From an uncultured Candidatus Saccharibacteria bacterium (GTDB lineage Bacteria > Patescibacteriota > Saccharimonadia > Saccharimonadales > UBA4665): a stretch of 64,000 bases of DNA. Position 1 is the stretch's first letter, and each line of letters begins with the position of its first letter. Below, piece after piece: positions 1-56,715 of the stretch. The translations under genes and the position numbers were made by a program. The DNA lies in assembly GCA_964497565.1 (NCBI GenBank), contig CAZCCP010000006.1, positions 1,449 to 65,448 on the forward strand, read 5' to 3'. The notes beneath the pieces were generated by a model. That model ran no database searches and had not been told where the DNA came from. It saw only the letters and a list, made by a program, of their open reading frames with translations.

Positions 1-1211
1 GCACCGGCCCAGCCGCCATACCGTGAAGCGTAGCCGCTGCACCACTTAAGCTGGGTCACTGGGTTAGATGGCCAGTCTGAGCCAGCACTTGCCATTTTGC
101 TTCCCGGCAAGGCCTGACAGAGACCGTAAGCACCAGATGCGTTATGCGCACCAGGGTTCCACCCAGACTCATGGCTAACGATGTAATCTACGTAAGCATA
201 GTCTCCTTGGGAGATACCTGCAAGCGCCATAACTGCCTTTTTGTCACTTGGAATCTGCACAGCCTTACCCTTGGCGACAATCTGCGCCACTGGCTGTTGC
301 ACGACAACCTCTTGAATTGCACGACGGCTAACCTCGACGCCGTTCTGTAGCTCAACCTCGTATGTTATAACCTTTTTACCAGGAGATCCCTGCTGACGAA
401 TAGCAGTCGTACCAAAGGTTAGCGAGCTGTCTTCAACGTTCTCAACAGGCATAGCGATATCCTCTTGAGAAGACACAATCTGTTTGCCCTTATGGATAAT
501 AAATACTTGCGTATTTGCGGCCAAAGGAGTCGATTCGGCAGGCTGCACGCTGTCTCCATCATGCAGCGTAATGCCCTTTTCCTTCAGAAGTGCGGACACT
601 GTCTTGGCATGTGTGCGCAGACCCACGGCAGTGCCATACAAATTCATATTTACTGGCGTTGCTCGATCGATAACCACACGCTCGCCAATCGAACTGTCGG
701 TTAGGAAGTTCTCTGTTGGCAATAATTTGAGGTTATCTTCTGGGTACACGGTTACGCCAGCCTGCTTAACAATGCTGCGAGGTGTTGCTGCGGCGCTATA
801 CGCAAACGTCTTTTGCTCACCGTCTATAACCGTGACTGGCACAGCGCGATACACGTTTACGCGAAAGTTATCACCGATGATTTGCGTATCACGGCTTGGT
901 TCGACAACGTCGCCTGAGTTGAGGTGAATCGAGAGTTTATCGAGCAATGAGCCAACAGTCTTGGCGCGCGTCGGAACCGTTTGGTGATGTTTGTCGTAGT
1001 CAAGGATAACGATGTTGGTGTCAGATGTCTGGAGCTTTGGGGTGCCGCCGTTCAGTACCAAAACGCCGACCATACCAAGAACAAGGAGCACCATAAATGT
1101 TGCTACCGGGATGGTAAACAGTGGCTTTTTGGCCAGTCGTTTAATATGACGGACGTGCCGACGTCTTGTCATATGAGCGCGACGTTGGAATTGTTGAAGT
1201 TTATTCGGCAT
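1..1211 (-). CDS. Secreted cell-wall protein with DUF348-like repeats, a G5-like domain and a C-terminal lysozyme/transglycosylase-like domain (YabE/RpfB-type architecture). The C-terminus runs off the left edge.
   Basis: Absent from the ORF track because it has no stop codon inside the window. My reverse-complement translation from the ATG at 1211..1209 gives MPNKLQQFQRRAHMTRRRHV. It continues with a TM anchor (LFTIPVATFMVLLVLGMVGVLVL), repeated DUF348-like modules, G5-like TYEVELQNGVEVSRRAIQEVVVQQPV, and then SHESGWNPGAHNASGAYGLCQALPG. Confidence 0.8.
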   Translation of the reverse strand, partial: MPNKLQQFQRRAHMTRRRHVRHIKRLAKKPLFTIPVATFMVLLVLGMVGVLVLNGGTPKLQTSDTNIVILDYDKHHQTVPTRAKTVGSLLDKLSIHLNSGDVVEPSRDTQIIGDNFRVNVYRAVPVTVIDGEQKTFAYSAAATPRSIVKQAGVTVYPEDNLKLLPTENFLTDSSIGERVVIDRATPVNMNLYGTAVGLRTHAKTVSALLKEKGITLHDGDSVQPAESTPLAANTQVFIIHKGKQIVSSQEDIAMPVENVEDSSLTFGTTAIRQQGSPGKKVITYEVELQNGVEVSRRAIQEVVVQQPVAQIVAKGKAVQIPSDKKAVMALAGISQGDYAYVDYIVSHESGWNPGAHNASGAYGLCQALPGSKMASAGSDWPSNPVTQLKWCSGYASRYGGWAG

Positions 1212-1320
1212 AACAAATGACTCGGGCTTGATTTAAAAAAGTAAAACCCCGGCCCAGACGAGTCATAGCTATTGTACCAAATTGCTTAGCTAGATTACCA
1301 CTTTACTCGTGGCTATGATG

Positions 1321-1349
1321 TTGTAATATGTGTATTTTAATTATATAAT
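1321..1349 (+). promoter_or_regulatory. Sigma70-type promoter for the first high-GC membrane-protein unit
   Basis: TTGTAA (1321-1326), a 17-nt spacer, then TATAAT (1344-1349). It sits in an AT-rich stretch immediately before GC-rich DNA. Confidence 0.5.
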
Positions 1350-1435
1350 ATGCTAGTTCTCCACTCCGTGGACCTCAGAACATTCACATTGCAGAGTGGA
1401 AGTGCTTTGGCACTACCCCTCAGGAAGGAATTCCG

Positions 1436-2032
1436 ATGACCGTCATGCCGCCGCCCGCATGGGCGATGGTTGCCGCCGCGCTTGTGATGCTCTTCAGCAT
1501 CGCGTCAGCAACGGTAATGCGCAGCCAGCACAGCACGGACGCCAGCTATTCCCGCCTCTACAGCTTCGTGCTGTCAGGCTTCGGCGGGCTGAACCTCGGT
1601 CTCCTGCTGGCGATGCAACTGGCCTACAAGCCGGGCTTCACCTACGCCGCGGAGCACCCGAAGATCATCTTCGGCTACATCGTCGGCGAGTGGGTCGTGA
1701 TCATCTGCGCCCTATGCAACTCGTTCAGGAACTACGGCGTGTTCACGCTGAAGCCCATCTCGATGGAGCTGTTCCTGAACGGCATGGCGTGCTGCTACCT
1801 GTTCGCACTCGCGTGCAACCAGCTGGCCGCGATCGCAAGCAGCCCCAACGGCGGCCACGAGGCCCTGAAACTGGGAGCGTTCGTCTTCGGGATGACCAGC
1901 GTCGCCGCGATCATGACCCTCGCCAGCTACCTGTCCACCTGGACCGAAAGCCGTTTCAACTCGCCCGCCCCCGCGGACGGCAAGACGGCTCAGTCCAACA
2001 CGGCCAAGCCCAACACGAGCAAGGAGCTCTAA
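1436..2032 (+). CDS. High-GC 5-TM membrane protein (cassette protein A), unknown family
   Basis: ORF track, 198 aa. RBS AGGAAGGA lies 6-7 nt upstream of the ATG. Codon third positions are strongly G/C (ACC GTC ATG CCG CCG CCC ...). Five hydrophobic segments. Overlapping ORFs in other frames look like high-GC shadows. Confidence 0.8.
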   Translation: MTVMPPPAWAMVAAALVMLFSIASATVMRSQHSTDASYSRLYSFVLSGFGGLNLGLLLAMQLAYKPGFTYAAEHPKIIFGYIVGEWVVIICALCNSFRNYGVFTLKPISMELFLNGMACCYLFALACNQLAAIASSPNGGHEALKLGAFVFGMTSVAAIMTLASYLSTWTESRFNSPAPADGKTAQSNTAKPNTSKEL

Positions 2033-2545
2033 ATGCACCTCGACCTCCAGAAGGCCAACGTGGCAGCGCTGCTGACACTCATGCTCATCGGCATCATCCA
2101 CTACGTCATCCTGACGCGGCGGATCGGAAGCAACAAGGTCGACAACGGCTACGGCGTCCGCCTGTTCCTGGTACTCATCAGCCTGGCACTCCTGGACGCC
2201 AACGGCTGGACGATCACCAAGTGGCTGTTCGCCCTGTTCAGCGCGTGCTACTGCGTGGCAACCTTCGGTAAGTTCGTCCGGACTTTCGCCGAGAAGTACA
2301 CACTGGATGCCGCGTTCGAACTGTCGACGACCTTCCTGCTGTTCACCACAGCAACGCTGCTCCTGCAGGTCGCTGTGCACGGCAAGTCCACCGGCTTCAT
2401 CCACGGCATCAACGTCGTCCTGCTGGTGATCGACGCGGCCACGCTCGTGATGGCCCTCATGGTCACCGCCCTGAGCGTCCGTCGCTACACCACCATGTCG
2501 GACATCTACGTGCCCACCCCGGCGGGTAAGCCCCCCATGTTCTAG
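2033..2545 (+). CDS. High-GC 5-TM membrane protein (cassette protein B), translationally coupled to A
   Basis: ORF track, 170 aa. The ATG directly abuts the TAA stop of A (TAAATG). The RBS AAGGAG is embedded in the last codons of A (K-E-L). GC-rich third positions; five hydrophobic segments. Confidence 0.8.
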   Translation: MHLDLQKANVAALLTLMLIGIIHYVILTRRIGSNKVDNGYGVRLFLVLISLALLDANGWTITKWLFALFSACYCVATFGKFVRTFAEKYTLDAAFELSTTFLLFTTATLLLQVAVHGKSTGFIHGINVVLLVIDAATLVMALMVTALSVRRYTTMSDIYVPTPAGKPPMF

Positions 2546-2568
2546 CCCTCGCGGCTGCCTCTACGTAC

Positions 2569-2622
2569 GGTGGGCGCGGGGGGGGGGGGGACTCGGGCTC
2601 ACCCCCCCCCCGCCGCACCACC
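2569..2622 (+). repeat. Inverted homopolymer hairpin: GGTGGGCGC-G13, loop, C10-GCCGCACCACC
   Basis: G run at 2578-2590 (13 nt) and C run at 2602-2611 (10 nt), separated by ACTCGGGCTCA. Flanking bases are also partly complementary. Confidence 0.7.
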
Positions 2623-2653
2623 AAACCACTCTGCAATATCAATCACGTATACG

Positions 2654-2680
2654 CCCCACCTGAGAAAGTGGGGATTTTTA
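2654..2680 (+). terminator. Intrinsic terminator of the A-B unit
   Basis: CCCCAC (2654-2659), loop CTGAGAAA, GTGGGG (2668-2673), followed by ATTTTTA. Confidence 0.6.
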
Positions 2681-2691
2681 GTTCTCACCCC

Positions 2692-2727
2692 TGATAAATA
2701 TTGTGTAAATGTGTATAATATTATAAA
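2692..2727 (+). promoter_or_regulatory. Promoter region for the second membrane-protein unit (exact hexamers ambiguous)
   Basis: TGATAA, 16 nt, then TGTATAAT (TATAAT at 2714-2719). A second TATAAA lies at 2722-2727. AT-rich block between two GC-rich blocks. Confidence 0.35.
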
Positions 2728-2811
2728 ATATGCGCGTATCTTTGCGGCCTTCGCAGAGCGTACCTCGACAACAGAGTGGTTCTCACAAGGAAACCACAGG
2801 AATGAGCAGCA

Positions 2812-3354
2812 ATGCCGCTCACCACAATCGTCGCAGCCAGTGTGCTGGGACTCTTTGCCCTGCTGATCGGCCTGTTCGGCAACAGCTTGGACGAAGACGA
2901 GAACGACTTCTACCGCGGCATCATGTTCGCAGTGGCAGCCGGTGCTGGTTGGATTGTCTTCTGTCTGAGCCACCCGGCTGGGCACATGGAAGATCTCCGC
3001 TACATTGGCGACCACACGGCGCTGGCAATATTCTTCGTTCTCATCGCCAAGGCGGTCTTCGACATCCTCTTCGAGGGTATGAAGGCTCAGCTACGCGATG
3101 TACTCGAAGTTGTCGGCATCTGTGCCCTCATCGGCTCCGTCGGTATGAAAGCCAGAGAAGTAGCCGCTCACGGGGCTCAGCCCAACCTTCACGCAGCCAA
3201 CATCTGGCTCATGATCGCCGGCTACCTGTGCCTCCTGGCGCTCATCATCGGCAGTGTCCTCAAGGGGAGCTGGCGTACGACGACCGCTGAGAGTGACACC
3301 AAAATCCCGAACGGACCACGGCACCGCGCACCCCGCGGACGCAAACACCCCTGA
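2812..3354 (+). CDS. High-GC 5-TM membrane protein (cassette protein C)
   Basis: ORF track, 180 aa. GC-rich third positions. Five hydrophobic segments and a basic C-terminal tail (PRHRAPRGRKHP). Confidence 0.8.
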   Translation: MPLTTIVAASVLGLFALLIGLFGNSLDEDENDFYRGIMFAVAAGAGWIVFCLSHPAGHMEDLRYIGDHTALAIFFVLIAKAVFDILFEGMKAQLRDVLEVVGICALIGSVGMKAREVAAHGAQPNLHAANIWLMIAGYLCLLALIIGSVLKGSWRTTTAESDTKIPNGPRHRAPRGRKHP

Positions 3355-3378
3355 CGTACCGAAAGGACGCGATTCCCA

Positions 3379-3972
3379 ATGACCGCTCTCGCCGTCGCCA
3401 TCGCGCTGTTTCTGACCATCGCCACACCCCAGTTCGTGATGCGCAACCGCGCACGCGACAACAGCAGCATGCCGTACATCGTCGTCGCAGCCGTCTTCAC
3501 CGCAAACGCCCTCTTCGCCACCATCTACCTGAGCATGCCTGGCATGTTCACGGGGCGACTGAGCAGCATCGGAGATGGGATCCTGATGACTGGCATCGCG
3601 TACGCAGCAGCCAAGGCTCTGGCGACCAAGACGGCAGCCCTCACTGACAAGCTGGAGATCTCCCTGGTCATCAGCGGCGCCATCGCGACCGCATCCAGGG
3701 CGTACAGCCTGCACTACACGGGCGCGAACAACCACTTCAATCTGTGGTACTGCGTCTCGGGCGCGACCTTCATCGTGCTGACGACCATCCTCCTGGTGGC
3801 CATCAAGCGCGACAACGACAAGCTCGAAGCCACACTGGCCCAGGCCCGTCGTGACCAAGCGTCCCGCCACCAAGCTCCCATGGAGGAGTGCACCACCGAC
3901 CCGGACCACTGGCTCAAGTATCACGCCCCCAACCCCGGTCCCATCGACCCGCGGTACAAGAAGGAGCTCTGA
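3379..3972 (+). CDS. High-GC 5-TM membrane protein (cassette protein D)
   Basis: ORF track, 197 aa. RBS-like GAAAGGA upstream. Ends in AAGGAGCTCTGA (..KKEL*), almost identical to the 3' end of A (AAGGAGCTCTAA). Confidence 0.8.
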   Translation: MTALAVAIALFLTIATPQFVMRNRARDNSSMPYIVVAAVFTANALFATIYLSMPGMFTGRLSSIGDGILMTGIAYAAAKALATKTAALTDKLEISLVISGAIATASRAYSLHYTGANNHFNLWYCVSGATFIVLTTILLVAIKRDNDKLEATLAQARRDQASRHQAPMEECTTDPDHWLKYHAPNPGPIDPRYKKEL

Positions 3973-4005
3973 ACCAACCGGCCGTCTGGCCTACCTGGAG
4001 TAGAA

Positions 4006-4059
4006 CGCGCGTTCGCGCGGCGGATCCTGGCATCAGCCATCCGTCCGCGCGAACTGCGC
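4006..4059 (+). other. Long GC-rich stem-loop downstream of protein D
   Basis: CGCGCGTTCGCGCGG (4006-4020) pairs with CCGCGCGAACTGCGC (4045-4059) with one bulge. The loop is about 24 nt. Confidence 0.6.
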
Positions 4060-4109
4060 CGCTCCTCTTCAAAAAACCACTCTGTTGTCCTCAAACCCTC
4101 GTCTTATTC

Positions 4110-4141
4110 AAAAGAGCCCCCTGCGTTGGGGGCTCTTTTTA
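4110..4141. terminator. Bidirectional intrinsic terminator shared by the C-D unit (+) and the helicase gene (-)
   Basis: AAAAGAGCCCCC, loop TGCGTT, GGGGGCTCTTTTT. A-run on one side and T-run on the other. It overlaps the helicase stop codon. Confidence 0.7.
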
Positions 4142-6388
4142 TTGCTCGACTTTGGTAATTGGTGCAAAACCTATATTGAGCTTCTTGGCACCTTTGCCCT
4201 TGAAATAAATGGTAGCGTTATCGCCGTCCATCTCCATGACTTGTCCTAACCCAAAGACTGCGTGCTTAACAGCATCACCCTCATACAGCTCGGGGACGTA
4301 GCGCGGTTCATCGTTGTCTACAACAGGGATGTCTTCCGGTTCGGCAGTCGATTCCATTTTGCGAAAACCTTGGCCAAAACCAGACTTCCCCTGGTTACCG
4401 TAGACGCCAGCATCTGGCTGGAAATCGGCGTCAACTTCACTCAAAAAACGTGACGGAGGATTTTGCTGCACTGCGCCGAAAAGCATGCGGCTCACGGTGT
4501 AAAGCATGTAGAGCTCTTCGCGAGCGCGGGTCATGCCGACGTAACAGAGGCGGCGCTCTTCTTCCATCGACGCTTCGTCGTACAGCGAGCGAGAAGTTGG
4601 GAACACCGTTTCTTCCATTCCCACCATAAATACGGCTGGAAATTCCAGACCCTTAGCAGCATGAAGTGTCATGAGCGTAACAGCATTGCCCTCAAAATCA
4701 GCCTGATCAACATCACTCACGAGACTTACTTCCTCAAGAAAAACGTCCAGACCTTCGTCTGTATAATTCTGGGCAACACCGACGAGCTCCTTGACGTTTT
4801 CCGCCTTGGATTCACCGGCAGGAGTACCGTCATTGACGTAGTTTATGTAGTCGAGGCGACGAACGATGCTGTCGATAATGCCGGCAGGCGGTGTGTCTTC
4901 CATGAGGTCGCGAAATGTCGACAGCATCTCACCAAGCTCGCTGAGGCCACGAATAGCGCGATCGGTCAGCATGTCACAATCTTCGACCTGACTCAGTGCC
5001 TGGAACAACGTATATTTGTTGGCCTGCTTCCACAAGAAGAAGTTCTCTACAGACTTCGCGCCCACACCGCGAGTTGGCACGTTGACGACACGCTGGAAAC
5101 TTACGCGATCTTCGGGCTGGTATATAAGACGAACGTACGCCATGAGATCTTTGATTTCTTTGCGGTCGTAGAAACGCTGGCCACCAACGATGCGGTACGG
5201 AATTCCATAATGGATAAATGTTTCTTCGACCATGCGACTTTGAGCGTTGGTACGGTACAGGACGGCGAAGTGGCTATACTTGCGAACACCACTGTCGACG
5301 CCATTACGGATACGGCGAACAATTGCGTCGCCTTCGGCACGTTCGTTAGCCACCTGCAACATCTGCACAGCCAAGCCTTCACCAGACGCCGTCCACAGTT
5401 TCTTGTCGGATCGCTGCTTATTCTTGGTGATAATCGTGTGTGCAGCATCCAAAATCGCTTTTGTACTACGATAATTTTGCTCAAGTTTGATAACCGTCGC
5501 TTGCGGGTAGTCTTTTTCGAAATTCAAAATGTTGCGGAAATCGGCACCGCGCCAGCTGTAAATGCTCTGCCAGTCATCGCCTACTACCGCAATGTTATTG
5601 CTGGCGTTGGTCATCATGCGCACGAGCTTATACTGCGCTGCATTTGTATCTTGGTATTCGTCAATCATAATGTAGCGGAATCGCTTCTGCCACTTCTTGC
5701 GTACTGTTTCTTGGGTGCTCATCATGCGCACCGTTGCGCTAATAAGATCATCAAAGTCTAGTGCGGCTGCTTCACGAAGCGACTGTTCATACAACGGATA
5801 CACTTGCGCCGCTGTTCGTTCTGCCGGGCTAGACTCGTTATTGGCAAATTCCTCAGGACTCATCAGGTCGTTTTTGGCGTTACTTATCATGCTGCCAATG
5901 ACTTTAGCTGGGAATGTCTTCTCGTCGATTGCCAACTGTTTGCATGCTTGTTTTACGGCTGACATGCGATCGGACTCGTCAAAGATGACGAAGCTCTTCG
6001 GAATACCAATGCTTTCACCATCCTGTCGTAAAATACGTACACAAATAGAGTGGAACGTACCCATGTAGGGCATGAAACTTCGGTTATCAGGGTCTTCACC
6101 AAGCAAGTGTGCGACGCGCTCACGCATTTCACGGGCGGCTTTGTTGGTAAACGTCACTGCCAAGATATTAAACGGCGACGCTTTGCGGGTCGAAATAAGA
6201 TACGCGATACGATGGGTTAGTGTTTTGGTTTTGCCAGATCCGGCGCCAGCCTGAATAAGCAGCGGCCCCTCGGTTGTAATAACCGCGCGCTTTTGCTCAT
6301 CGTTGAGCCCCTTAACAAGCTCAGCCTCAGGACCAGTAACAGTACCCGCAGGAACTTCATCGGCCCAGGGGTCAAAAATATCATCCAT
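4139..6388 (-). CDS. pcrA: ATP-dependent DNA helicase, UvrD/PcrA family
   Basis: Walker A AGAGSGKT, DEYQDTN, VGDDWQSIYSWRGA, TLHAAKGLEF, and the C-terminal AVFGLGQV..IYF motif typical of the family. The ORF track starts at a TTG (6418). I prefer the first ATG at 6388 (MDDIFDPW). Confidence 0.92.
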   Translation of the reverse strand: MDDIFDPWADEVPAGTVTGPEAELVKGLNDEQKRAVITTEGPLLIQAGAGSGKTKTLTHRIAYLISTRKASPFNILAVTFTNKAAREMRERVAHLLGEDPDNRSFMPYMGTFHSICVRILRQDGESIGIPKSFVIFDESDRMSAVKQACKQLAIDEKTFPAKVIGSMISNAKNDLMSPEEFANNESSPAERTAAQVYPLYEQSLREAAALDFDDLISATVRMMSTQETVRKKWQKRFRYIMIDEYQDTNAAQYKLVRMMTNASNNIAVVGDDWQSIYSWRGADFRNILNFEKDYPQATVIKLEQNYRSTKAILDAAHTIITKNKQRSDKKLWTASGEGLAVQMLQVANERAEGDAIVRRIRNGVDSGVRKYSHFAVLYRTNAQSRMVEETFIHYGIPYRIVGGQRFYDRKEIKDLMAYVRLIYQPEDRVSFQRVVNVPTRGVGAKSVENFFLWKQANKYTLFQALSQVEDCDMLTDRAIRGLSELGEMLSTFRDLMEDTPPAGIIDSIVRRLDYINYVNDGTPAGESKAENVKELVGVAQNYTDEGLDVFLEEVSLVSDVDQADFEGNAVTLMTLHAAKGLEFPAVFMVGMEETVFPTSRSLYDEASMEEERRLCYVGMTRAREELYMLYTVSRMLFGAVQQNPPSRFLSEVDADFQPDAGVYGNQGKSGFGQGFRKMESTAEPEDIPVVDNDEPRYVPELYEGDAVKHAVFGLGQVMEMDGDNATIYFKGKGAKKLNIGFAPITKVEQ

Positions 6389-11217: not shown

Positions 11218-11440
11218 TTTTATTCTCCAAGAATAGATTTGCTTTTGTTGGATATTATTATGCGCCTGGCATACACATAATGCAAACAGGCGCCTAAAAA
11301 TCGGGGTTGAGGTTGCGGGGGTGTGTTTTGTAAAAATGGCGTTATGCCAAACACACCCTCGCGGGCAGAAATCTCGTTGATGAATCGCCTCAGGCGAGTC
11401 AGCTACGCGATAGTTCTACCACCCCTGTACTTCTTGAGCG

Positions 11441-11788
11441 TCAGCCCTTGCGACGCAGCTTGCGCGCGACGAGGACCACGACGATGACGCCGGCGGCGAC
11501 CAGGCCCTTGTTGCGGTGCTTGCGCACCTTGGTGACGGCCAGCTGGCGCTGCTCGGGGTCCTTGGCGGTGTTGACGACGGCGGTGCCGGCGGTCTTGACC
11601 TTGGAACCCGCGCTGCGGACGGTGTCGCTGGTGGCGACCTTCTTGACCGCGGCGACAGTCGTGTCCTTGGCGGACGCGGCGTAGAGGCCGGCGGTAGAAG
11701 CGGCGGTCTTGACCTTGTCGAGCTTGCTCACGTCGGAAACCTCCGTGGTGTCGGTGCCCTCGGCGCCGTTGAGGATGTTGGCGGTCAT
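11441..11788 (-). CDS. High-GC small tail-anchored protein, Ala/Thr/Lys-rich, unknown function
   Basis: ORF track, 115 aa. RBS AAAGGTAGGTAGG upstream. GC-rich third positions. C-terminal TM (LVAAGVIVVVLVA) followed by RKLRRKG. Confidence 0.7.
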   Translation of the reverse strand: MTANILNGAEGTDTTEVSDVSKLDKVKTAASTAGLYAASAKDTTVAAVKKVATSDTVRSAGSKVKTAGTAVVNTAKDPEQRQLAVTKVRKHRNKGLVAAGVIVVVLVARKLRRKG

Positions 11789-12040
11789 GGTGACCTACCT
11801 ACCTTTACATCGAAGTTACAGGAGCTGAGCATGTTCGCTCGATATTCTCAAACGAAAAATCCACCTAAAAGGTGCATACTCAACGATGTATTAAATACTA
11901 TATGAGCTTAAAAATCAAATACATTAGCCAAAATGTAAAACCAAAAGTCCGCGTTAGGTATCTCGGGGAGAGATAACTATCTCTCTACTTAATACGTACG
12001 CGGACTATTCTGGGCAGTCAGCCGGTGTTTCCGGAGGCTA

Positions 12041-12998: not shown

Positions 12999-14690
12999 AT
13001 GGAACACGCCGCCGCGCATAACGCGAGCAAGTTCACTGATAAGCAAAAGAAAATTGCTTTGCTTATTGTGGCCTTCGCATTCGTTATGGACCTGCTCGAC
13101 TCAACTATTGTCAACGTCGCCATTCCTTCTATCCAGGCTAACCTGGGTGCAAGTTACGCCACAATTCAGTGGCTGGTGGCCGGCTACTCACTTACCTTTG
13201 CCCTCCTCCTTATTACTGGTGGACGCATGGGTGACGTGTTTGGCTACAAGAAGATCTTCCTCCTCGGTGTGGGTGGATTTACGATCGCTTCATTATTAAC
13301 AGGTATCGCACCGAACCCAGCATTCCTGGTTGTCGCCCGTCTTGTTCAAGGTGGTATGGCCGCCCTCATGGTGCCGCAGGTGATGTCGCTAATGCAAGTG
13401 ATGTTCAAACCGAGCGAACGCGCAGGCGTCATGGGCATGTTTGGTATGCTTGGTGGTTTGGCCGCCTCACTTGGACCTATCGTTGGTGGTTTGCTTATTA
13501 AGGCAAACATCTTCGGCTGGGACTGGCGCCCAATCTTCCTGATTAACCTTCCCGTTGGTATTTTCGCCCTCATCGCAGGTATGAAATTCCTTCCGGACGG
13601 CAAATCAGAACACCCATTACACATCGACATCAAGGGTACTTTCCTTGTTGTCATCGGATTGAGCTTGCTCGTATTCCCACTTATTGAAGGTCGTGACCTC
13701 GACTGGCCACTCTGGACAATTGCTATGCTGGCTGCATCAATTCCAGCGTTGATGTTCTTCGGTTGGTACGAGACACGCAAGCACAAACGAGACGCTTCGG
13801 CGCTTATCGTGCCGTCACTCTTCAAGATTCGTTCATTCGTCAGTGGTCTATCTCTGAACATTTTGATCGAATCTGTAATGATCGGCTACTTCCTAACCTT
13901 CCAGCTTGCAATGCAGGCAGGCCTTGGCTACAGCCCAATTAAATCTGCGCTTACTGGTGTTCCAACCGCTTTCGGTATGACCATTGGTTTTGCAGTACTT
14001 GGCAACAAGCTTATCCCTAAGTTTGGTCGCTACGTCATTAGCTTTGGTTCAACTGCTTTCGCAGCTGGCCTGGTATACGCAAGTTGGATTCTCAGCCACT
14101 ATGGTTTGGCTGCACATCCATGGCAGTTCATTCCTGGCCTGTTTATCGTTGGCGTTGGTTTGTCACTTGTTATGGCTCCAATCTTCTCAGCTGCACTCCA
14201 AGACGTTGACCCAGGTCACGCCGGCTCAGCATCTGGCATTTTGAATGCCGTACAGCAAGTTGGTGCCGCTATCGGTATCGCCGTTATCGGTGTCATCTTC
14301 TTCGGTCAATTGAATCATGGCGCATACAAGAGCTTTGACGATGTGTCTCCTAAGCTTCGCAAGGATCTCACTGCATTGCACGTTCCCGCACAAGCTCAGA
14401 GCAGTATCATTGCTCAAACTCGTGAATGTTTCCACGACCGCAGTACTGCGGATGATCAAAACATTGTGCCAGAAAGCTGCAAGCAAGCCCAAGCAGCTGC
14501 GCCAACCACTGAAGCCGGCAAGGCTGCCGGTGAAGCAATTTCAGCAAGCGCCAAAAGCGCAAATGCTGCAAACTTTGCACACGGCTTCCGTTCTAGTGTC
14601 ATCTACGTCATCTTGCTACTCGTTGTAGCATGTGGCCTCAGCATGACACTCCCCAAGAAGTTCCGCGTTGTCGAAGAAGGCGCTGTCTAA
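12999..14690 (+). CDS. MFS drug:H+ antiporter, DHA2/EmrB-QacA type (about 14 TMS)
   Basis: 563 aa. LDSTIVNVAIPSI and GGRMGDVFGYKK motifs, with many TM segments. Confidence 0.9.
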   Translation: MEHAAAHNASKFTDKQKKIALLIVAFAFVMDLLDSTIVNVAIPSIQANLGASYATIQWLVAGYSLTFALLLITGGRMGDVFGYKKIFLLGVGGFTIASLLTGIAPNPAFLVVARLVQGGMAALMVPQVMSLMQVMFKPSERAGVMGMFGMLGGLAASLGPIVGGLLIKANIFGWDWRPIFLINLPVGIFALIAGMKFLPDGKSEHPLHIDIKGTFLVVIGLSLLVFPLIEGRDLDWPLWTIAMLAASIPALMFFGWYETRKHKRDASALIVPSLFKIRSFVSGLSLNILIESVMIGYFLTFQLAMQAGLGYSPIKSALTGVPTAFGMTIGFAVLGNKLIPKFGRYVISFGSTAFAAGLVYASWILSHYGLAAHPWQFIPGLFIVGVGLSLVMAPIFSAALQDVDPGHAGSASGILNAVQQVGAAIGIAVIGVIFFGQLNHGAYKSFDDVSPKLRKDLTALHVPAQAQSSIIAQTRECFHDRSTADDQNIVPESCKQAQAAAPTTEAGKAAGEAISASAKSANAANFAHGFRSSVIYVILLLVVACGLSMTLPKKFRVVEEGAV

Positions 14691-17062: not shown

Positions 17063-17156
17063 CAGGTATGGACAACCTCTCTGTGAAAGTGCAAAGTCTT
17101 AGCCCTCTAGTTATACCACAGAGGTCTGCGCAGACGATGCTTGGTGCAAAATAGAA

Positions 17157-17209
17157 CAAAATGAAAAGCACCTACAGGTATTGACCGGTCGGGTCGACAC
17201 CTGTAGGTG
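17157..17209 (-). terminator. Terminator hairpin downstream of the CHAP gene
   Basis: CACCTACAGGT (17169-17179) pairs with ACCTGTAGGTG (17199-17209), with a 19-nt loop. On the minus strand it is followed by GCTTTTCATTTT. Confidence 0.6.
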
Positions 17210-17244
17210 TAATGCTTTTCAGAGCTCGGTGTCGAGCAGGGCCG

Positions 17245-17757
17245 TTACTTCTTGTAGATGAAGAAGTCCGGCTTGGGCGACTTCGACGCGTGCGGACCGA
17301 TGCCAGTGGCACCGATGTCCCGGAACGAAGGTCCCACTGTGTTCCAGCGGACCTCCCTCACTCGGAACGTGGCAGCACCAGCCCTGTAGCTGTAGACGTA
17401 CGCGAAGTGCGTACGGTGCGAAGTCCACACTGCCAGCGCGCCGGCCTTCGGCTTCGTACCGACCTTGTAGCCCCTGTTGAGGGCAGTCGACTTGAAGTTT
17501 TGGGTCCGCACATGGTCGAATTTGGTCCCAGTCCAGTGCTCCCACGCCCAGACGGCGTAGTCAGCGCACCAGCCCTTCGTGAGGGCTGCAGGGCTGTTGC
17601 CGCTGCTGTAGCCCGCGAAGGGATAGGACTTCGTGCTGTAGAACTGAGCGAGGGTCATGCTCTTGGCCTCGGCCAAGGGCGCAACCACGACGCCAGCCGT
17701 CAGCGTGAACACCAGTGCGGTGCCACCGACAGCCAGGCGTTGTTTTACTCGATTCAC
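17245..17757 (-). CDS. Secreted CHAP-domain (NlpC/P60-superfamily) peptidoglycan hydrolase, high GC
   Basis: Cys motif GWCADYAVWAW, His motif HRTHFAYVY and downstream REVRWN. Signal peptide ...VVVAPLAEA/KS. I place the start at the GTG at 17757, preceded by GGAGAA. The ORF track extends to 17823. Confidence 0.8.
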   Translation of the reverse strand: MNRVKQRLAVGGTALVFTLTAGVVVAPLAEAKSMTLAQFYSTKSYPFAGYSSGNSPAALTKGWCADYAVWAWEHWTGTKFDHVRTQNFKSTALNRGYKVGTKPKAGALAVWTSHRTHFAYVYSYRAGAATFRVREVRWNTVGPSFRDIGATGIGPHASKSPKPDFFIYKK

Positions 17758-17831
17758 GAGTTCTCCAGAGGTTCGCGACAATGTCGCACCGAAAACTGTT
17801 TGCCACTGATGTGGCGAAAGCACAGTTGTAC

Positions 17832-17859
17832 ATTATACACCTATTATGTGTATGTCCAA
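17832..17859 (-). promoter_or_regulatory. Promoter of the CHAP gene
   Basis: On the minus strand: TTGGAC, 16 nt, then TGTATAAT. Confidence 0.5.
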
Positions 17860-19550: not shown

Positions 19551-19803
19551 TACAGGACTGCAGCGTAGTCGATTCTTTTATAAACAAGAAAAAAGCCCCA
19601 AGCGTACGCTTGAGACTCTTTTCTTGGTGAACCTACCCGCCCAGTTTTGGAAGACCTTTTGGCCTAGTCTGGAATTATTGCATGACAACTTAATCATGTT
19701 GGGTGTGTCCGACCACGAACTAATGCTGGAGGGTGGCGCTAATGTTGGCGTGGCTTCGGCTCGTGCATATAGAGAAGGAATCTAGTAGCAGACGGATTCA
19801 ACC

Positions 19804-21105: not shown

Positions 21106-21356
21106 CACAACTCCTCTAGATTGGTATTATCGTTTGAATTCTTCGAAGCTCTCACGAGCTGTTTTGAAGATCAACTTCACAATGTTGTAGTGGGGGTCGT
21201 TCTTATCTTCATCGTGCAGATCTGTTATTTTTGATCGCATTCGCTGCGAGAGTTCTTATATGTATATTACATCTCAAAACGCTGCTGCTTGCAATTTCAA
21301 CTCCTCTTAGGCATGCTTAAGAAAAGTAACGTGGTGGGCATGTGAGGGGGTAGCAC

Positions 21357-21977: not shown

Positions 21978-22030
21978 CGGGGGCGCAAACTATGACAAAA
22001 CAATATGACTACACAACAGCCTAAATAGGT

Positions 22031-22055
22031 AGAGCCCCCGTAAGGGGCTCTTTTT
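22031..22055. terminator. Bidirectional terminator between convergent genes
   Basis: GAGCCCC, loop CGTAA, GGGGCTC, then TTTTT. Confidence 0.7.
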
Positions 22056-22176: not shown

Positions 22177-22333
22177 ATTTAACTCCTTGTTATTTGGTAA
22201 CCTTACTGTAGCTTTGTCAATAAGAGTTTAGCAAGTATATTTTTTGCAACAGACATGATTTCATCCCCGTAGCCGAATCTCAAACTCCCCTTCGTTTACA
22301 GAGAGGATTAAAATTAACAGGGGGTCAAAGTTT

Positions 22334-50060: not shown

Positions 50061-50075
50061 ATAAGAGCGGCTTTT
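50046..50075. terminator. Bidirectional terminator
   Basis: AAAAGCCGCTC, loop CTAGATAA, GAGCGGCTTTT. It overlaps the marR stop codon. Confidence 0.7.
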
Positions 50076-50181
50076 CTGGTAGCAAAGTAGGTGGGCTCTT
50101 GAGTGTATGCGTAAAAATGCCAGTGGCATCACATACACCCGAGAGCCGGACGGCTACCTCCTTAATTGAGAGCGGTTTGGA

Positions 50182-51099
50182 CTATCGGCGAGGCCGACGT
50201 ATCGGGAAGCGCTGCGCGAGATGCAGATCGTTGTCGTGTGATCCGCCAGGTGTGCGGTGCGATTGGTCGAGAACGACCTTCAGCTCGCCGCTGAGCTGCG
50301 GGTGAATGCCGAGGGTGTACATGAAGTGCACCACATCGACCTCCAGTCCCTTGAGCAACTCCAGCGGATCCAGTTCGAAGAGCGTTGAGCTCTCGTAGGT
50401 TGCCGTGACCGCCTGAGCGCGTACAGAACGCACGTCCAGGAAGTACGCCAGCCCGCAGGTAGCCTCAAGGCTGGGAACAAAAGACCGCTGCTGCTTGGTG
50501 ATGCGGACGGTGACCGTCGCCGTACACATGCGTCCCAGCCTGCTGTCATACGGAATACGTACGATGGCATGGCCGGTAGCCTCGTAGATCGGCTTGATCG
50601 CGCTGGAAAGCACGAGGCGTGCTGCCTCCGAGTTGCAGAGCGTCAGACAGTTGTTCTCGATGCAGAGCTGCCAGTCGCCCGCCAGGCCCGGATCTTGCTG
50701 GATCCAGCCGTCGACCAGCTCATTGAGCCGTTGTACGGTGAACGCCTGCTCGGGCCGCAGTACCACGATGTCGTCGTTCATGCTGTTGGTGTCGATGAAG
50801 AGTACGTCTGGCACACTCTTGTCGAACTCCGCCTGAAGCACGCGCAGCGGGATCTCCAGGTTGTACAGAGCCTCCTGGTCAATCGGATGCTCGTCGTCAT
50901 TCGGAAGTACGAAACACAGCCCAGACCTTCGGTCCCAGCTGACGCTCGCGCTGCCCTCCACGATGAGCACCTGCAGTGCCTGCAGCGTTGCGTTGATGCT
51001 GGCTGCCGTAAACGGCACCTCAGCAGGAACGCCAAGGACCAGTCTGTGCTGATCCCGGTTCGGCTGCTCAAGCAGTCCCTCTCCCCTGACGGTTGCCAT
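50182..51099 (-). CDS. High-GC paralog P1 (305 aa), unknown family
   Basis: RBS GAGAGGA upstream. GC-rich third positions (CTG/GAG/ATC/GAC codons). Shares VPFTAASINATLQAL, GLCF and C-terminal LGIHP..ELKVVLD with P2-P4. Confidence 0.8.
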   Translation of the reverse strand: MATVRGEGLLEQPNRDQHRLVLGVPAEVPFTAASINATLQALQVLIVEGSASVSWDRRSGLCFVLPNDDEHPIDQEALYNLEIPLRVLQAEFDKSVPDVLFIDTNSMNDDIVVLRPEQAFTVQRLNELVDGWIQQDPGLAGDWQLCIENNCLTLCNSEAARLVLSSAIKPIYEATGHAIVRIPYDSRLGRMCTATVTVRITKQQRSFVPSLEATCGLAYFLDVRSVRAQAVTATYESSTLFELDPLELLKGLEVDVVHFMYTLGIHPQLSGELKVVLDQSHRTPGGSHDNDLHLAQRFPIRRPRR

Positions 51100-51150
51100 G
51101 GGAATGTCCTCTCAATTGGTCCACGATGTGGAACGGTAGCTGACAAATAT

Positions 51151-51179
51151 ATTATACAATCAAAAAATAATAATCACAA
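51151..51179 (-). promoter_or_regulatory. Promoter of P1
   Basis: On the minus strand: TTGTGA, 17 nt, TATAAT (as TGTATAAT). The surrounding 40 nt are about 15% GC by hand count. Confidence 0.55.
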
Positions 51180-51190
51180 AGGTGTGCTTC

Positions 51191-51247
51191 GGCTGGGTGG
51201 TGTTCGGTAAAGATGGTCGCTATGCAACCGATGAACACCACCCAACC
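51191..51247 (-). other. Long-stem, large-loop hairpin downstream of P2
   Basis: 15-nt arms, GGCTGGGTGGTGTTC and GAACACCACCCAACC on the plus strand, with one G-U position in the minus-strand RNA. 27-nt loop. Confidence 0.6.
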
Positions 51248-51257
51248 CTGGCAACTA

Positions 51258-52169
51258 CTACGACCTGGCGCTTACGGCTCCAGGGAGAAAACTCAACGCT
51301 CGCTGGCTGTCGATGTTGACTCGGAACTCTGTGACATCTGGGTGGTATCCCAGTGCCCGAGCGAAAGCCAGCGACTGCTGCCAGACGATGTTGTCAGTGA
51401 CCAAGTCGGTCATCAGCCCGGTGTACGTAGTGCCCTGAGGCAAACCGATGAGCCGGGCGCGGGCAACTCCTTCAGCAGTCTGTTCGACGCCAACGATGTT
51501 GGGCACGAGTCGTGCTGCATCGAGGTCGAATGACAGGTCGATCCGATAGCCGGGCGTGCCGGTGACCGTGATCCAGATGCGCTCGATGAAGCCCTGGTCG
51601 AGCTCACATGTCACGTCGAGTTTGCAGTGCTTGTAGCGGGGACTGAAGCTGTACCGGAAGTCGCTCATAGACGAGCTGTCGCCGTCTCGCAAGGCGAGGT
51701 AGGGACGTGACATGTCGAACGACAGGTACTTGCTGCTGTGGCCCAGCTGCTCGAAGAGCGACTTAAAGCTCGCTGTTGTCACCGGCTGATCTGGTTCAAG
51801 GATCGCCAAGCACTCATCTCTGCCATATGGCTCACGGGCCGTCAGGAACAGGATGTCCTGCGTTGCTTCCGGCTTGTCATCGACTGCGAAGTCGAAGTCA
51901 AAGGCCTTGAGCTGGCGTCGAACGTCCTGCTCCTCGCGGAAGTAGTGACTGATCCGGAAGTGCAGAGCTGTACCGCCCACAACCGCGAGCTCAGACTTGG
52001 TGAGCACGCTGTCGATAGACGAGTCGCCAGCAAGGTGCTGCCGCAGTCGTTGGAGATCCCGGTACAGTGTACGGGTCGTAAAGACCTCCCTGGGGTCGAT
52101 GTAGATGTAGAAGTGCGAGTGATCGTCGAAAGATGGCATCGACAATACGGGCCGGCGCTTTGGGCGCAT
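51258..52169 (-). CDS. High-GC paralog P2 (303 aa), unknown family
   Basis: The track ORF starts at a TTG (52217) inside the promoter. The ATG at 52169 (MRPKRRP) follows the RBS GAGGGAAG. C-terminal ALGYHPDVTEFRVNID. Confidence 0.8.
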   Translation of the reverse strand: MRPKRRPVLSMPSFDDHSHFYIYIDPREVFTTRTLYRDLQRLRQHLAGDSSIDSVLTKSELAVVGGTALHFRISHYFREEQDVRRQLKAFDFDFAVDDKPEATQDILFLTAREPYGRDECLAILEPDQPVTTASFKSLFEQLGHSSKYLSFDMSRPYLALRDGDSSSMSDFRYSFSPRYKHCKLDVTCELDQGFIERIWITVTGTPGYRIDLSFDLDAARLVPNIVGVEQTAEGVARARLIGLPQGTTYTGLMTDLVTDNIVWQQSLAFARALGYHPDVTEFRVNIDSQRALSFLPGAVSARS

Positions 52170-52205
52170 TCTCTTCCCTCTCGTCGTGTAGTTGACGTGG
52201 GATAT

Positions 52206-52234
52206 ATTATGCAACAAATAAATAATAATTACAA
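52206..52234 (-). promoter_or_regulatory. Promoter of P2
   Basis: On the minus strand: TTGTAA, 17 nt, CATAAT (as TGCATAAT). It is nearly identical to the P1 promoter block over about 45 nt. Confidence 0.55.
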
Positions 52235-52248
52235 AGGTGGTGCTGGCT

Positions 52249-52301
52249 CTTGGGGTACGTTATCTTTGCGATGGAAGTCCATCAGACAAACATACCCCAA
52301 G
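52249..52301 (-). other. Long-stem, large-loop hairpin downstream of P3
   Basis: CTTGGGGTA (52249-52257) pairs with TACCCCAAG (52293-52301). 35-nt loop. Confidence 0.5.
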
Positions 52302-52328
52302 GGCCGTGTCAGCAGCCGAGCACATTGC

Positions 52329-53189
52329 TCAGCTTCGATCGCTCATCGGCGGTGGCTTGTAGAGCAGCTCATGGCTGTCATCGATCCTGATACGGAACTC
52401 CAGGTCACGCGGGTGGTAGCCCAGAGCTTTGGCGAACTTGACCGTGAACTTCCACACCTTAGCGGCGTTGACGAAGTCGGCCATGAAGCCCGGATAGGTC
52501 AGGAGCCAGGGTTGGCCCGCCAGACGTGCGGTGACGGCACTATGCTCCTCCACGACGTCCGCAGCGAAGTTGAGCGCTTTTGCGGCGTCCAGGTTGTAGC
52601 CAATCTGGCCCTCAGCGGCCCGAGTACCCTCGACATGCATGATGATGCGGTCGATGTAGTGGTTGCGGACAGTTGCCACGGCGTAGACGCGAGCCTGCTT
52701 GTAGCGAGGCTTGAGCACCCGGACTGCGTTCTCACCCAGGCGGTCGTGCCAGACCTGACAGACCCAGAGGTACGGCGCATCCGCCTTGATGTACCAGTCC
52801 TCGCCTTGGTCGTTGAGGCCAGCCAGGTAGGTGTTGATCGTCGTTACGCTCAGCGGCTGCTCGGGGTCGATTGCACCGCCACACTGGCCGGCAACGAAGA
52901 GAATCTCCGGAACTTCCGGCACGGCGTCCACTGCATACGTGAACTTGTATGCCATCAGTCGCTCGCGAAGCTCGTCGAGCTCGTCCGGGTTGCCGCCGAA
53001 GCGGAAACACAGACCCTTGTCGGAGCTGGTCTTCAATGCAACCCTGTTGAACTCGAACTCAGCGCGAAGCTTCTCCAGCTGAGCGATCACGCTATTCGGC
53101 GTGAACACCTCGTCCCGGTGCATGTGTACGAGCACCTCTCGGTGGCTGGTACTCACTTCGACAGCAGGCTGTCGGCTTTCAAAGTGCAT
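52329..53189 (-). CDS. High-GC paralog P3 (286 aa), unknown family
   Basis: RBS GGGAGAGG upstream. GC-rich third positions across the whole ORF, checked codon by codon. Contains GLCFRFGGNPDEL and ALGYHPRDLEFRIRID. Confidence 0.8.
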   Translation of the reverse strand: MHFESRQPAVEVSTSHREVLVHMHRDEVFTPNSVIAQLEKLRAEFEFNRVALKTSSDKGLCFRFGGNPDELDELRERLMAYKFTYAVDAVPEVPEILFVAGQCGGAIDPEQPLSVTTINTYLAGLNDQGEDWYIKADAPYLWVCQVWHDRLGENAVRVLKPRYKQARVYAVATVRNHYIDRIIMHVEGTRAAEGQIGYNLDAAKALNFAADVVEEHSAVTARLAGQPWLLTYPGFMADFVNAAKVWKFTVKFAKALGYHPRDLEFRIRIDDSHELLYKPPPMSDRS

Positions 53190-53234
53190 GAACCTCTCCC
53201 TACTCGTTCGTGCGAAGTATAGCTGACAAGACTA

Positions 53235-53263
53235 ATAATATAATGTTCTTCATACATTGGCAA
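53235..53263 (-). promoter_or_regulatory. Promoter of P3
   Basis: On the minus strand: TTGCCA, 17 nt, TATTAT, followed by the TTGTCAGCTA 5'UTR element shared with P1. Confidence 0.45.
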
Positions 53264-53324
53264 CGTAGCTACTCTATCGAAATGACACGAGTATCATCTT
53301 TAAGAACAGCTAGGTTGTGTGTTC

Positions 53325-53380
53325 GGGTCTCCTGGGGTTGTATGTTGATACCATACTGGCATCGCAACCCCGGGAGACCC
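53325..53380 (-). other. Long-stem, large-loop hairpin downstream of P4
   Basis: GGGTCTCCTGGGGTTG (53325-53340) pairs with CAACCCCGGGAGACCC (53365-53380), 15 of 16 positions. 24-nt loop. Confidence 0.6.
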
Positions 53381-53406
53381 TCGCAACTACATGTCATTCA
53401 CCTCTT

Positions 53407-54372
53407 TCAGGCGCGGTCGGACAGGATGTCGAAGTGGTGACTCAGTTCGATGGTCTGGAGGGCGCTGCCGTAATCCAGCGTGATGCTGTACTTCGGCATG
53501 CCGACCACCGGGAAGATGTTCAGGGCCTTGGCCAGTTCGACGCTGAGGGCGTGGACTGCGAAGATGAACTTCCTCGGATCACCGAAGGTGAACAGCTCCG
53601 AACCGGCGGTTTCGACGTGAACCTGGTTGAACTGGTCAACCTCGACGTTTACGACGCCAGCGACGAGCTTCACGCGGCTGAGGTCGAACTCGTGCGGCTC
53701 GATCGGCGAAATGACGCGGATCATGTGGTGGACGGAGGCCAGTTGGTCTTCCTCGTTGTACCCGCAGGAGGCCGTGATGATGCCACAGTACGGGTACTTC
53801 GCGACCACACGGAGTGCCATGGCGCTGTAGTCGATGGCGGTGTCGCGCAGGTCCTCCTGGTCGTCCTCGTCCAGATCGTCGTCGTAGCCGCAGTCCTCGT
53901 CGTCGAGATGCTCCAGCAGGAACGCTCCCCAGCCGACTGATGCCGTCCAGTCTTCCCGCCGTTTAGCGAGCTTTCCGGTGAAGCGGTCGATCAAGTCGAT
54001 GAACATGGCACCGGTGAGCACCTGTAGCGGCTCGATAACGAGCTGCGGGTACTTACTGGTGCAGTCCAGTGACAGGACTTCGAGAGCTTCGCTCGTGACT
54101 TTGCCATCAGCCCTGAGGGACGTCTTGATGTTGGCGGCTCGCTCGAGAACTTCTGGCGACGTTTCGTAGCCGAACCGTACGATCAGCCCGTTGTTCTCAC
54201 CCGAATAACGGATGGACACGTCGTCCAGTTCCTCGTCGGTGAGCTCTTCGATTGTGGCGGTGACGCTGGCGGCCGTAAACGGCATGTCCAGCGGCATCAG
54301 GAATGCCGGGCAGCTTTCGTCGGTGACAAGCTTGCCGCCGAGATCTGCGATTGAGTACACTTCTTCTCCCAT
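53407..54372 (-). CDS. High-GC paralog P4 (321 aa), unknown family, with an acidic insert
   Basis: MPFTAASVTATIEEL, GLIVRF and C-terminal AKALNIFP are homologous to P1-P3. Asp/Glu-rich insert DDEDCGYDDDLDEDDQED. Confidence 0.8.
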   Translation of the reverse strand: MGEEVYSIADLGGKLVTDESCPAFLMPLDMPFTAASVTATIEELTDEELDDVSIRYSGENNGLIVRFGYETSPEVLERAANIKTSLRADGKVTSEALEVLSLDCTSKYPQLVIEPLQVLTGAMFIDLIDRFTGKLAKRREDWTASVGWGAFLLEHLDDEDCGYDDDLDEDDQEDLRDTAIDYSAMALRVVAKYPYCGIITASCGYNEEDQLASVHHMIRVISPIEPHEFDLSRVKLVAGVVNVEVDQFNQVHVETAGSELFTFGDPRKFIFAVHALSVELAKALNIFPVVGMPKYSITLDYGSALQTIELSHHFDILSDRA

Positions 54373-54409
54373 CGTCGTCCACTGAGGTGAAATGGTAGTT
54401 GACGTGCAT

Positions 54410-56711: not shown

Positions 56712-56715
56712 CGCT

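Follow-up and report, generated by a model that had tools for sequence, protein, structure and literature searches.

What purpose is served by short inverted repeats that bracket a pair of genes from outside, and do such repeats act in DNA or in RNA? The question is raised by a locus of an uncultured Candidatus Saccharibacteria bacterium (assembly GCA_964497565.1, contig CAZCCP010000006.1), which we examined within a stretch of 64,000 nucleotides (nt) of this contig (positions 1,449 to 65,448, hereafter "the window"). Two units of predicted membrane-protein genes, unit 1 with open reading frames (ORFs) A and B and unit 2 with ORFs C and D, sit there between a G5/DUF348/SLT gene and pcrA/uvrD. 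Each unit carries one copy of its own repeat in the 5' untranslated region (UTR) and the opposed copy in the 3'UTR, referred to below as its 5' and 3' arms. The two arms of a unit are complementary, are conserved with compensatory changes across related genomes, dominate the predicted folds, and lie within the predicted transcript. Because arm pairing is kept across related genomes, we favor end-to-end closure of the mRNA, and consider it probable that the mRNA of each unit closes on itself through its two arms and that this closure serves to control nuclease access. As judged from sequence comparison, the pairing is well supported, and the repeats appear to add a new case, backed by phylogeny, to the known 5'/3'-UTR interactions.

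A model's sequence-only reading of this DNA had reported an exact 12-nt inverted repeat around unit 1 and an exact 15-nt one around unit 2, and both positions and complementarity were verified. In unit 1, 1388-1399 (ATTGCAGAGTGG) is the perfect reverse complement of 2626-2637 (CCACTCTGCAAT), and this pairing can be extended to 18 nt at 89% (1382-1399 with 2626-2643); in unit 2, 2767-2781 (GACAACAGAGTGGTT) is the perfect reverse complement of 4075-4089 (AACCACTCTGTTGTC). Both arm pairs have an 8-nt core in common (CAGAGTGG/CCACTCTG), of which four copies follow each other in alternating orientation (+ - + -) along the two-unit locus, again as the sequence-only reading had described; a fifth copy of CAGAGTGG lies elsewhere in the window, within an ORF (13707-13714). 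The raw count of five is weak evidence, with 1.8 copies expected and five reached in 6 of 100 shuffles, so that clustering and pairing carry the weight. To assess the probability of chance pairing, each 5'UTR was compared with the 3'UTR of its unit by a local complement score, used in place of whole-UTR duplex folding, whose energies are inflated by long internal loops. The best complement measured 12 in unit 1 and 15 in unit 2, compared to 6.5-6.8 ± 1 in shuffles (0/300 for each unit), and in a 6 x 6 matrix of 5'UTRs versus 3'UTRs the cognate partner was best or joint best in all rows. Across 57 ordinary ORFs of the window, taken as a control, the longest 5'/3' complement averaged 6.4 nt and did not exceed 10 nt; a single ORF (39861-40658, minus strand) has a complement of that length, between the 80 nt upstream of it and the region downstream. 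The inverted repeats of both units are thus confirmed to be real and not the product of chance, an origin that the sequence-only reading had already called very unlikely for the 15-mer.

Conservation and covariation of the arms

The locus recurs in eight related contigs (L002, L088, L091, L094, L095, L096, L098, and L099), for a total of nine genomes and 15 complete units when the window is included. Both arms are present in all 15 units. The 8-bp core is invariant throughout, whereas three to five flanking pairs vary by unit and genome yet stay complementary (arm sequences in Table 1). When pairs were counted over the 15 units, 84.9% of cells were paired, against 76.0 ± 1.5% in shuffles (0/500), and the covariation score was 0.226, against 0.087 in shuffles (0/500); with the partner slid by one to three columns, 30-53% of cells were paired. 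Changes on both sides were observed at 7 of 15 pairs, with about seven compensatory events. Specifically, the three pairs next to the core alternate, position -1 between AU and GC, position -2 between AU and UA, and position -3 among CG, UA, and AU, and 44 of their 45 cells remain paired. Conservation and covariation in homologous loci, on which the sequence-only reading had let its proposal depend, were therefore both found. A search for the core in related loci, as it had suggested, was also made: across 179 fetched loci, mostly from Saccharibacteria and other members of the Candidate Phyla Radiation (CPR), opposed core copies 0.5-1.7 kb apart were detected at this locus and in this clade only, rather than scattered at random.

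The way in which the flanking pairs vary bears on whether the arms could instead pair between molecules. The 3' end of the transcript, composed of a single-stranded seed (CCACUCUG) and the terminator hairpin, could be released as a 3'UTR-derived small RNA acting in trans on both 5'UTRs. The position of the 3' arm, in an A/C-rich unstructured spacer directly before the terminator hairpin, corresponds to the usual layout of such RNAs, and an 8-nt core that is invariant in both units resembles a seed fixed by several targets. However, the extensions of the core are unit-specific (ATTG/CAAT as opposed to GACAA/TTGTC) and covary within a unit, which favors cognate, probably intramolecular, pairing. 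No other target sites were found in the window or in related loci, and we regard regulation in trans as unlikely.

The invariant core can also be read at the DNA level, with the four sites representing operators for a protein that loops each unit, and the complementarity of the arms being incidental. In favor of this, the 8-bp core is unchanged at all four sites in all genomes, and an HTH/MarR-type gene is found two genes away in relatives. This would nevertheless leave unexplained the covariation of flanking bases between the arms of a unit, the constant placement of the arms in unstructured spacers of the predicted transcript, and the recurrence of unrelated arm pairs at other loci (see below), so that we hold operators to be very improbable.

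Predicted folds and a candidate role in mRNA stability

In favor of pairing within one mRNA, folding of the predicted full-length transcripts (813-1413 nt), another check suggested by the sequence-only reading, placed the core helix in the minimum-energy structure of all 15 units, with 8/8 core pairs formed in 14 of them and 7/8 in one. The long-range helix had a mean pair probability of 0.93-1.00 across units, and the energies of the arm helices ranged from -18 to -25 kcal/mol. Both arms fall inside the predicted transcript, where they occupy A/C-rich spacers that are unstructured and separate hairpins. In the leader, a first hairpin (SL1) precedes the 5' arm, which ends 30-36 nt upstream of the start codon (arm ends at 1399 and 2781, start codons at 1436 and 2812) and leaves the Shine-Dalgarno sequence uncovered. 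At the other end of the transcript, the 3' arm lies between a long GC-rich hairpin and the predicted terminator, as the sequence-only reading had placed it, and is 16-20 nt upstream of the terminator hairpin in the window, with a similar distance in relatives; unit 1 of L002 is without an evident terminator. The -10 block of the unit 1 promoter is kept in L002, L088, L091, L095, and L096.

The hairpins around the arms, as far as can be judged from sequence comparison, behave as RNA. The 3' hairpin of unit 2, folded with RNAalifold over the nine genomes, includes 16 pairs, of which 8 changed on both sides, and G-U pairs are present. The 5'UTR hairpins, too variable for MAFFT alignment, were folded singly; SL1 and a second hairpin next to the 5' arm (SL2) fold in every unit despite their differing sequences. 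SL2 shares 2-6 nt with the 5' arm, so that the local hairpin and the long-range helix compete for GUGG, and the two may form a switch that is thrown once the 3' arm has been transcribed. A search of Rfam 15 yielded no family at gathering score apart from the two tRNAs of the window, and nothing below E = 0.26 in 1200-4200.

Taken in order, one transcript per unit would comprise the promoter, SL1, the 5' arm, SL2, the ribosome-binding site, one or two ORFs, the GC hairpin, the 3' arm, and the terminator. After transcription, the 5' arm would pair with the 3' arm of the same RNA, forming a 12-15 bp helix that encloses the whole coding region. This helix may control nuclease access, and could do so by masking a cleavage site in the leader, as in the hbs mRNA of Bacillus subtilis discussed below; alternatively, the helix itself could be processed by RNase III. 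Either role would account for an invariant 8-bp core with covarying flanks. Together with GC-rich codons and hairpins at both ends, the helix would be expected to yield an unusually stable mRNA.

Closing stems formed by distant sequences are known from the processing stems that flank rRNA and from the RNase III sites of phage T7 early mRNA. Such stems usually measure at least 20 bp and are found on either side of non-coding RNA or in between cistrons, whereas here a short helix closes a protein-coding operon. The closest analogue is instead the B. subtilis hbs mRNA, in which a fully complementary 14-nt segment, located immediately downstream of a 5' hairpin, finds its partner immediately upstream of the terminator at -19 kcal/mol (PMC5737220), i.e., with the same arm positions as in the window units (12-15 nt, -18 to -25 kcal/mol). 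Compensatory mutation validated the hbs pairing, which limits cleavage by RNase Y (Braun, Durand and Condon 2017, PMC5737220). The hallmarks of this type, complementary 5' and 3'UTRs and a hairpin-arm/arm-terminator layout, are found in the units studied here along with natural compensatory changes, and in either system the ribosome-binding site stays clear of the pairing, which is thus compatible with translation. Conversely, the hbs mRNA is monocistronic and short (under 600 nt), while the helices described here span 0.8-1.4 kb and up to two ORFs; the two share no sequence similarity, and a core that is invariant across paralogous units and genomes is a feature of the window units. The effect on RNase Y is experimental for hbs, whereas the function proposed here is transposed from it.

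Two other systems provide useful comparisons. In Staphylococcus aureus icaR mRNA, the 3' motif UCCCCUG binds by base-pairing to the Shine-Dalgarno region, preventing initiation (Ruiz de los Mozos et al. 2013, PMC3868564), and the resulting duplex is an RNase III substrate (PMC3868564). The arms of the window units differ in that they do not cover the Shine-Dalgarno sequence, and an anti-Shine-Dalgarno arrangement of the icaR type was accordingly not found. The RNase III of B. subtilis cuts duplexes of 10-36 bp that distant segments of one mRNA form, and shows sequence preferences within them (PMC11780869), which offers one possible explanation for the invariant core, although the spans of these substrates reach 505 nt, compared to 750-1300 nt here.

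Several points weigh against the closure that we propose. The variable arm pairs all change from Watson-Crick to Watson-Crick with no G-U intermediate, and this absence of one-sided G-U changes would also fit inverted repeats maintained at the DNA level, though only about seven independent events are involved. That the core never varies points to recognition of its particular sequence, something not needed for pairing by itself. Transcript starts and terminators are predicted, as is pairing in the cell, and the functional consequence is argued wholly by analogy. Finally, in the analogous islands of the window (see below), complements of 8-9 nt correspond only to the upper tail of the control genes, and since predicted folds often bring the two ends of a long RNA together, the closing helices obtained for 7 of 9 transcripts of this kind are weak evidence when taken alone.

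Intramolecular 5'/3'-UTR interactions have rarely been documented in bacterial mRNAs. The hbs and icaR cases were established by experiment, and comparative support of the present kind has not been seen for either. Here, by contrast, is a case that can be recognized from sequence alone, is clade-wide and naturally compensated, and belongs to the little-studied Patescibacteria/CPR. Its arms provide a concrete target for studying the control of mRNA stability in reduced epibionts, and they mark a hypervariable membrane-protein locus that, like two similar loci, may matter for host interaction.

Hypervariable genes in a conserved frame

The gene order PGK-TPI-hypothetical-PcrA-[gap]-G5 is kept in more than 20 Saccharibacteria, and it is the gap that varies. 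In the window it spans 2.9 kb. Alleles free of the element, which the sequence-only reading had proposed to look for, occur in distant relatives (L012, L014, L015, and L019), where only 120-165 bp separate pcrA from the G5 gene, while in other Saccharibacteria the gap is filled with unrelated genes (329-aa and 170-aa ORFs in L004, 6.4 kb in L006). The pcrA-G5 intergenic site thus looks like a hot spot for lineage-specific genes. In L002, whose PcrA is 88% identical to that of the window, the gap contains the same two-unit element with all four core copies. An exhaustive HMMER search for the C/D protein family returned 10 members among 1.84 billion representatives, and all traceable members are at this locus, in L088, L091, L094, L095, L096, L098, and L099. 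Scanning metagenomes with PcrA recovered only distant relatives (71% identity or less) and no further instances of the element, and a DNA search of phage records gave no match.

The enclosed genes encode proteins with no credible Pfam, PADLOC, or PHROG family. Protein A is an orphan among 5.8 billion proteins, and searches of this 5.8-billion-protein index with A, the C/D family, and the E-H family of island 2 (see below) returned almost only self matches. An AlphaFold model of protein C shows five helices (predicted local distance difference test score of 80), with no neighbor in the PDB (best E = 0.47). Proteins A and D and the C/D family nearly all end in a K/R-K-x-L type motif (TSKEL, YKKEL, FRKEL, LKKKL, LKKHL; in the window at 2018-2032 and 3958-3972), the rest of the tails being hypervariable and proline-rich.

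Between the window and L088/L091/L095, PcrA is 95% identical, compared to 37-41% for A-type, 57-59% for B-type, and 26-46% for unit-2 proteins. Across the pairs compared, nonsynonymous divergence (dN) is 0.02-0.87 for these genes and 0.001-0.03 for PcrA, i.e., 10-35 times higher in most pairs, and its ratio to synonymous divergence (dN/dS) is 0.35-1.1, against 0.01 for PcrA. At the same time, GC content at third codon positions (GC3), which is 0.73-0.91 in ORFs A-D and 0.51-0.54 in flanking genes, stays at 0.66-0.95 in all lineages while protein identity falls to 20-60%, indicating that third-position GC is maintained rather than left over from a recent import. Synonymous divergence of the enclosed genes is below that of pcrA, so something, whether selection on RNA or biased gene conversion, constrains or biases their third positions.

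L091 and L095 illustrate how these genes diverge: identity is about 96% over the locus as a whole, yet drops to 40-45% between the unit-2 promoter/leader and the stop codon, with 27% protein identity for the unit-2 ORFs (4850-5566 in L091). The right breakpoint falls at the conserved C-terminal K/R-K-x-L motif and not at the 3' arm. This divergence, bounded within a conserved UTR frame, shows that whole ORF alleles are exchanged between strains, and the breakpoint at the stop codon indicates that the arms belong to the frame and are not cassette boundaries. Of the "recombined cassette" contemplated in the sequence-only reading, the replacement of entire ORFs is therefore retained, while the role of the arms as its edges is not.

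Alternatively, the arms could be DNA recombination sites, used for inversion (phase variation) or for exchange of the enclosed genes. In favor of this, the repeats are inverted copies with a common core and alternating orientation, their changes are strictly Watson-Crick, and the 5'UTRs have a mosaic makeup with joins close to the 5' arm; the ORFs are hypervariable, as in the L091/L095 pair, where divergence is concentrated inside unit 2. On the other hand, all units have a single orientation in the nine genomes and in many independent assemblies, no recombinase gene is found within about 25 kb, and the arms lack an internal dyad of the kind that recombinase core sites typically have. The swapped allele has its right breakpoint about 110 nt before the 3' arm, and the arms of the other islands differ in sequence and are sometimes bulged. 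We consider recombination at the arms quite unlikely.

The sequence-only reading had offered terminal inverted repeats of a mobile cassette as the alternative to end-to-end pairing of the mRNA. The pairing is borne out by its recurrence in 15/15 units, by compensatory changes, and by the predicted folds, whereas a transposable cassette, for example one resembling a miniature inverted-repeat transposable element (MITE), now has close to no probability in our view. Short perfect inverted repeats do bracket foreign-looking DNA, with a GC3 of up to 0.91 next to neighbors at 0.51-0.54. Yet the element is always at one locus, with no other copies in the window or in the 179 fetched loci, no target-site duplications or flanking direct repeats, and no transposase in the scanned ORFs; the repeats enclose neither the promoter nor the terminator, both of which are conserved along with them, and GC3 is high in all lineages despite 55-75% protein divergence.

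Known classes of elements and origins were also considered and rejected individually. An insertion sequence or MITE was set aside in the absence of multi-site copies, target duplications, and a transposase, and an inverton because the orientation is the same as that of the promoter in all assemblies with no recombinase within about 25 kb. Against an integron cassette, which would be promoterless and followed by an attC hairpin, every unit comes with a promoter, the arms stand on both sides of the ORFs instead of making up one attC, and no integrase was seen, although no formal attC model was applied. No genome-wide motif enrichment indicative of a DNA uptake sequence was detected. A retron (a1/a2) or a diversity-generating retroelement was rejected based on the lack of long direct repeats (template/variable) in 1200-4200 and of a reverse transcriptase in the scanned ORFs. 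Lastly, recent transfer of the C/D family from high-GC Actinobacteria was discarded, no homologue having been found outside the locus and GC3 being high everywhere despite 55-75% protein divergence.

The features of both units, the arm variants, and the two similar loci are listed in Table 1. The homopolymer hairpin in the 3'UTR of unit 1 is peculiar to this genome, relatives having a mixed-sequence GC hairpin in the same place; homopolymer runs like G13/C10 are liable to slippage or assembly error.

Table 1 Features of the two units, arm sequences in related genomes, and similar loci of the window (positions are those of the window).
Feature	Position	Strand	Details
Unit 1 predicted promoter	1321..1349	+	TTGTAA-17-TATAAT, sigma-70-type; -10 at 1344-1349
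Unit 1 leader hairpin SL1	1356..1381	+	Folds in all genomes; inner stem varies (CCAC/GTGG or CCTGC/GCAGG)
Unit 1 5' arm	1388..1399	+	ATTGCAGAGTGG; core 1392-1399; weaker extension from 1382
Unit 1 hairpin SL2	1402..1413	+	Directly 3' of arm, 5' of Shine-Dalgarno; stem differs per genome, still pairs
Unit 1 Shine-Dalgarno	1423-1430	+	GGAAGGAA
ORF A	1436-2032	+	198 aa; multi-pass membrane protein; GC3 of A/B 0.90-0.91
ORF B	2033-2545	+	170 aa; multi-pass membrane protein; GC3 of A/B 0.90-0.91
Unit 1 3'UTR long GC hairpin	2573..2619	+	G13/C10 in this genome
Unit 1 3' arm	2626..2637	+	CCACTCTGCAAT; weaker extension to 2643
Unit 1 predicted intrinsic terminator	2654..2679	+	
Unit 2 predicted promoter	2691..2729	+	Sigma-70-type; -10 TATAAT at 2714-2719 or, going by relatives, TAAAAT at 2724-2729
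Unit 2 leader hairpin SL1	2740..2758	+	
Unit 2 5' arm	2767..2781	+	GACAACAGAGTGGTT; core 2772-2779
Unit 2 hairpin SL2	2776..2797	+	5' strand GTGGTT overlaps arm
ORF C	2812-3354	+	180 aa; helical membrane protein, paralogue of D; GC3 of C/D 0.73-0.86
ORF D	3379-3972	+	197 aa; helical membrane protein, paralogue of C; GC3 of C/D 0.73-0.86
Unit 2 3'UTR long GC hairpin	4007..4059	+	RNAalifold, nine genomes
Unit 2 3' arm	4075..4089	+	AACCACTCTGTTGTC
Unit 2 predicted intrinsic terminator	4110..4140	+	Overlaps pcrA stop codon on other strand; compensatory changes in L002
Unit 1 arms, window and L091			5' ATTGCAGAGTGG / 3' CCACTCTGCAAT
Unit 1 arms, L088			5' ATGCAGAGTGG / 3' CCACTCTGCAT
Unit 1 arms, L096			5' TTTACAGAGTGGG / 3' CCCACTCTGTAAA
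Unit 2 arms, L088, L091, L094, L095, L096, L098			5' GACAACAGAGTGG / 3' CCACTCTGTTGTC
Unit 2 arms, L002			5' CAACAACAGAGTGG / 3' CCACTCTGTTGTTG
Unit I	11421..11825	-	115-aa ORF (11441-11788, GC3 0.94); 5' arm GCTCCTGTAACTTC 11812-11825; 3' arm GAAGTACAGGGGT 11421-11433
Island 2	50061..54409	-	Four tandem paralogues E-H of ~300 aa, GC3 0.74-0.81; 5'-terminal arms GTCAACTAC or TGTCAGC type

Similar designs elsewhere in the window

Two further loci of the window, unit I and island 2, carry arm pairs around GC3-rich genes. The closing helix of unit I is bulged, and its orthologue in L002 (1150-1700) keeps the helix with one compensatory change, from C:G to U:A. The unit I protein is tail-anchored and Ala/Thr/Lys-rich, and a tblastn comparison between it and its L002 counterpart detected no similarity at E <= 1e-3. 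In island 2, where the statistical support is weaker than for units 1 and 2, each unit has its own promoter, and the arms pair just after or across the stop codon, with a long hairpin following; unit H is the only one in which an arm lies over the ribosome-binding site. Proteins E-H are cytoplasmic and without a family match. A syntenic island in L082 (9900-13150) comprises three units in which the arm pairs are kept, with island 2 proteins 40-43% identical between the window and L082 while neighboring genes are 70-85% identical.

Overall, a closing helix was part of the minimum-energy fold for 7 of 9 GC3-rich clade-specific transcripts, and the pairs of the analogous units are conserved or compensated in L082 and L002, which is suggestive of a 5'-3' closing design extending to these other islands. 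A broader extrapolation, which we offer as tentative and on balance doubtful, is that the clade uses an "armoured transcript" design (5' hairpin, closing helix with a sequence-specific core, long 3' hairpins, and enforced GC3) for its fastest-evolving clade-specific genes, the frames of which would double as homology anchors for whole-allele swaps by natural transformation. If so, this design would produce very long-lived or specifically processed mRNAs.

Other regions of the window have features of their own. A 192-aa ORF on the minus strand (17130-17850), probably secreted and with a GC3 of 0.76, has a promoter to itself and is followed by a long terminator hairpin, and no closing helix was found in its predicted fold. 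A low-GC region (0.38-0.45) at 18537-22536 encodes Fic/DOC and HEPN (Cthe_2314-like) proteins beside a tRNA-Glu, and may be a toxin or defence islet. At 55944-59226, the Ku and LigD genes of the non-homologous end joining pathway lie side by side, and are conserved in L082.

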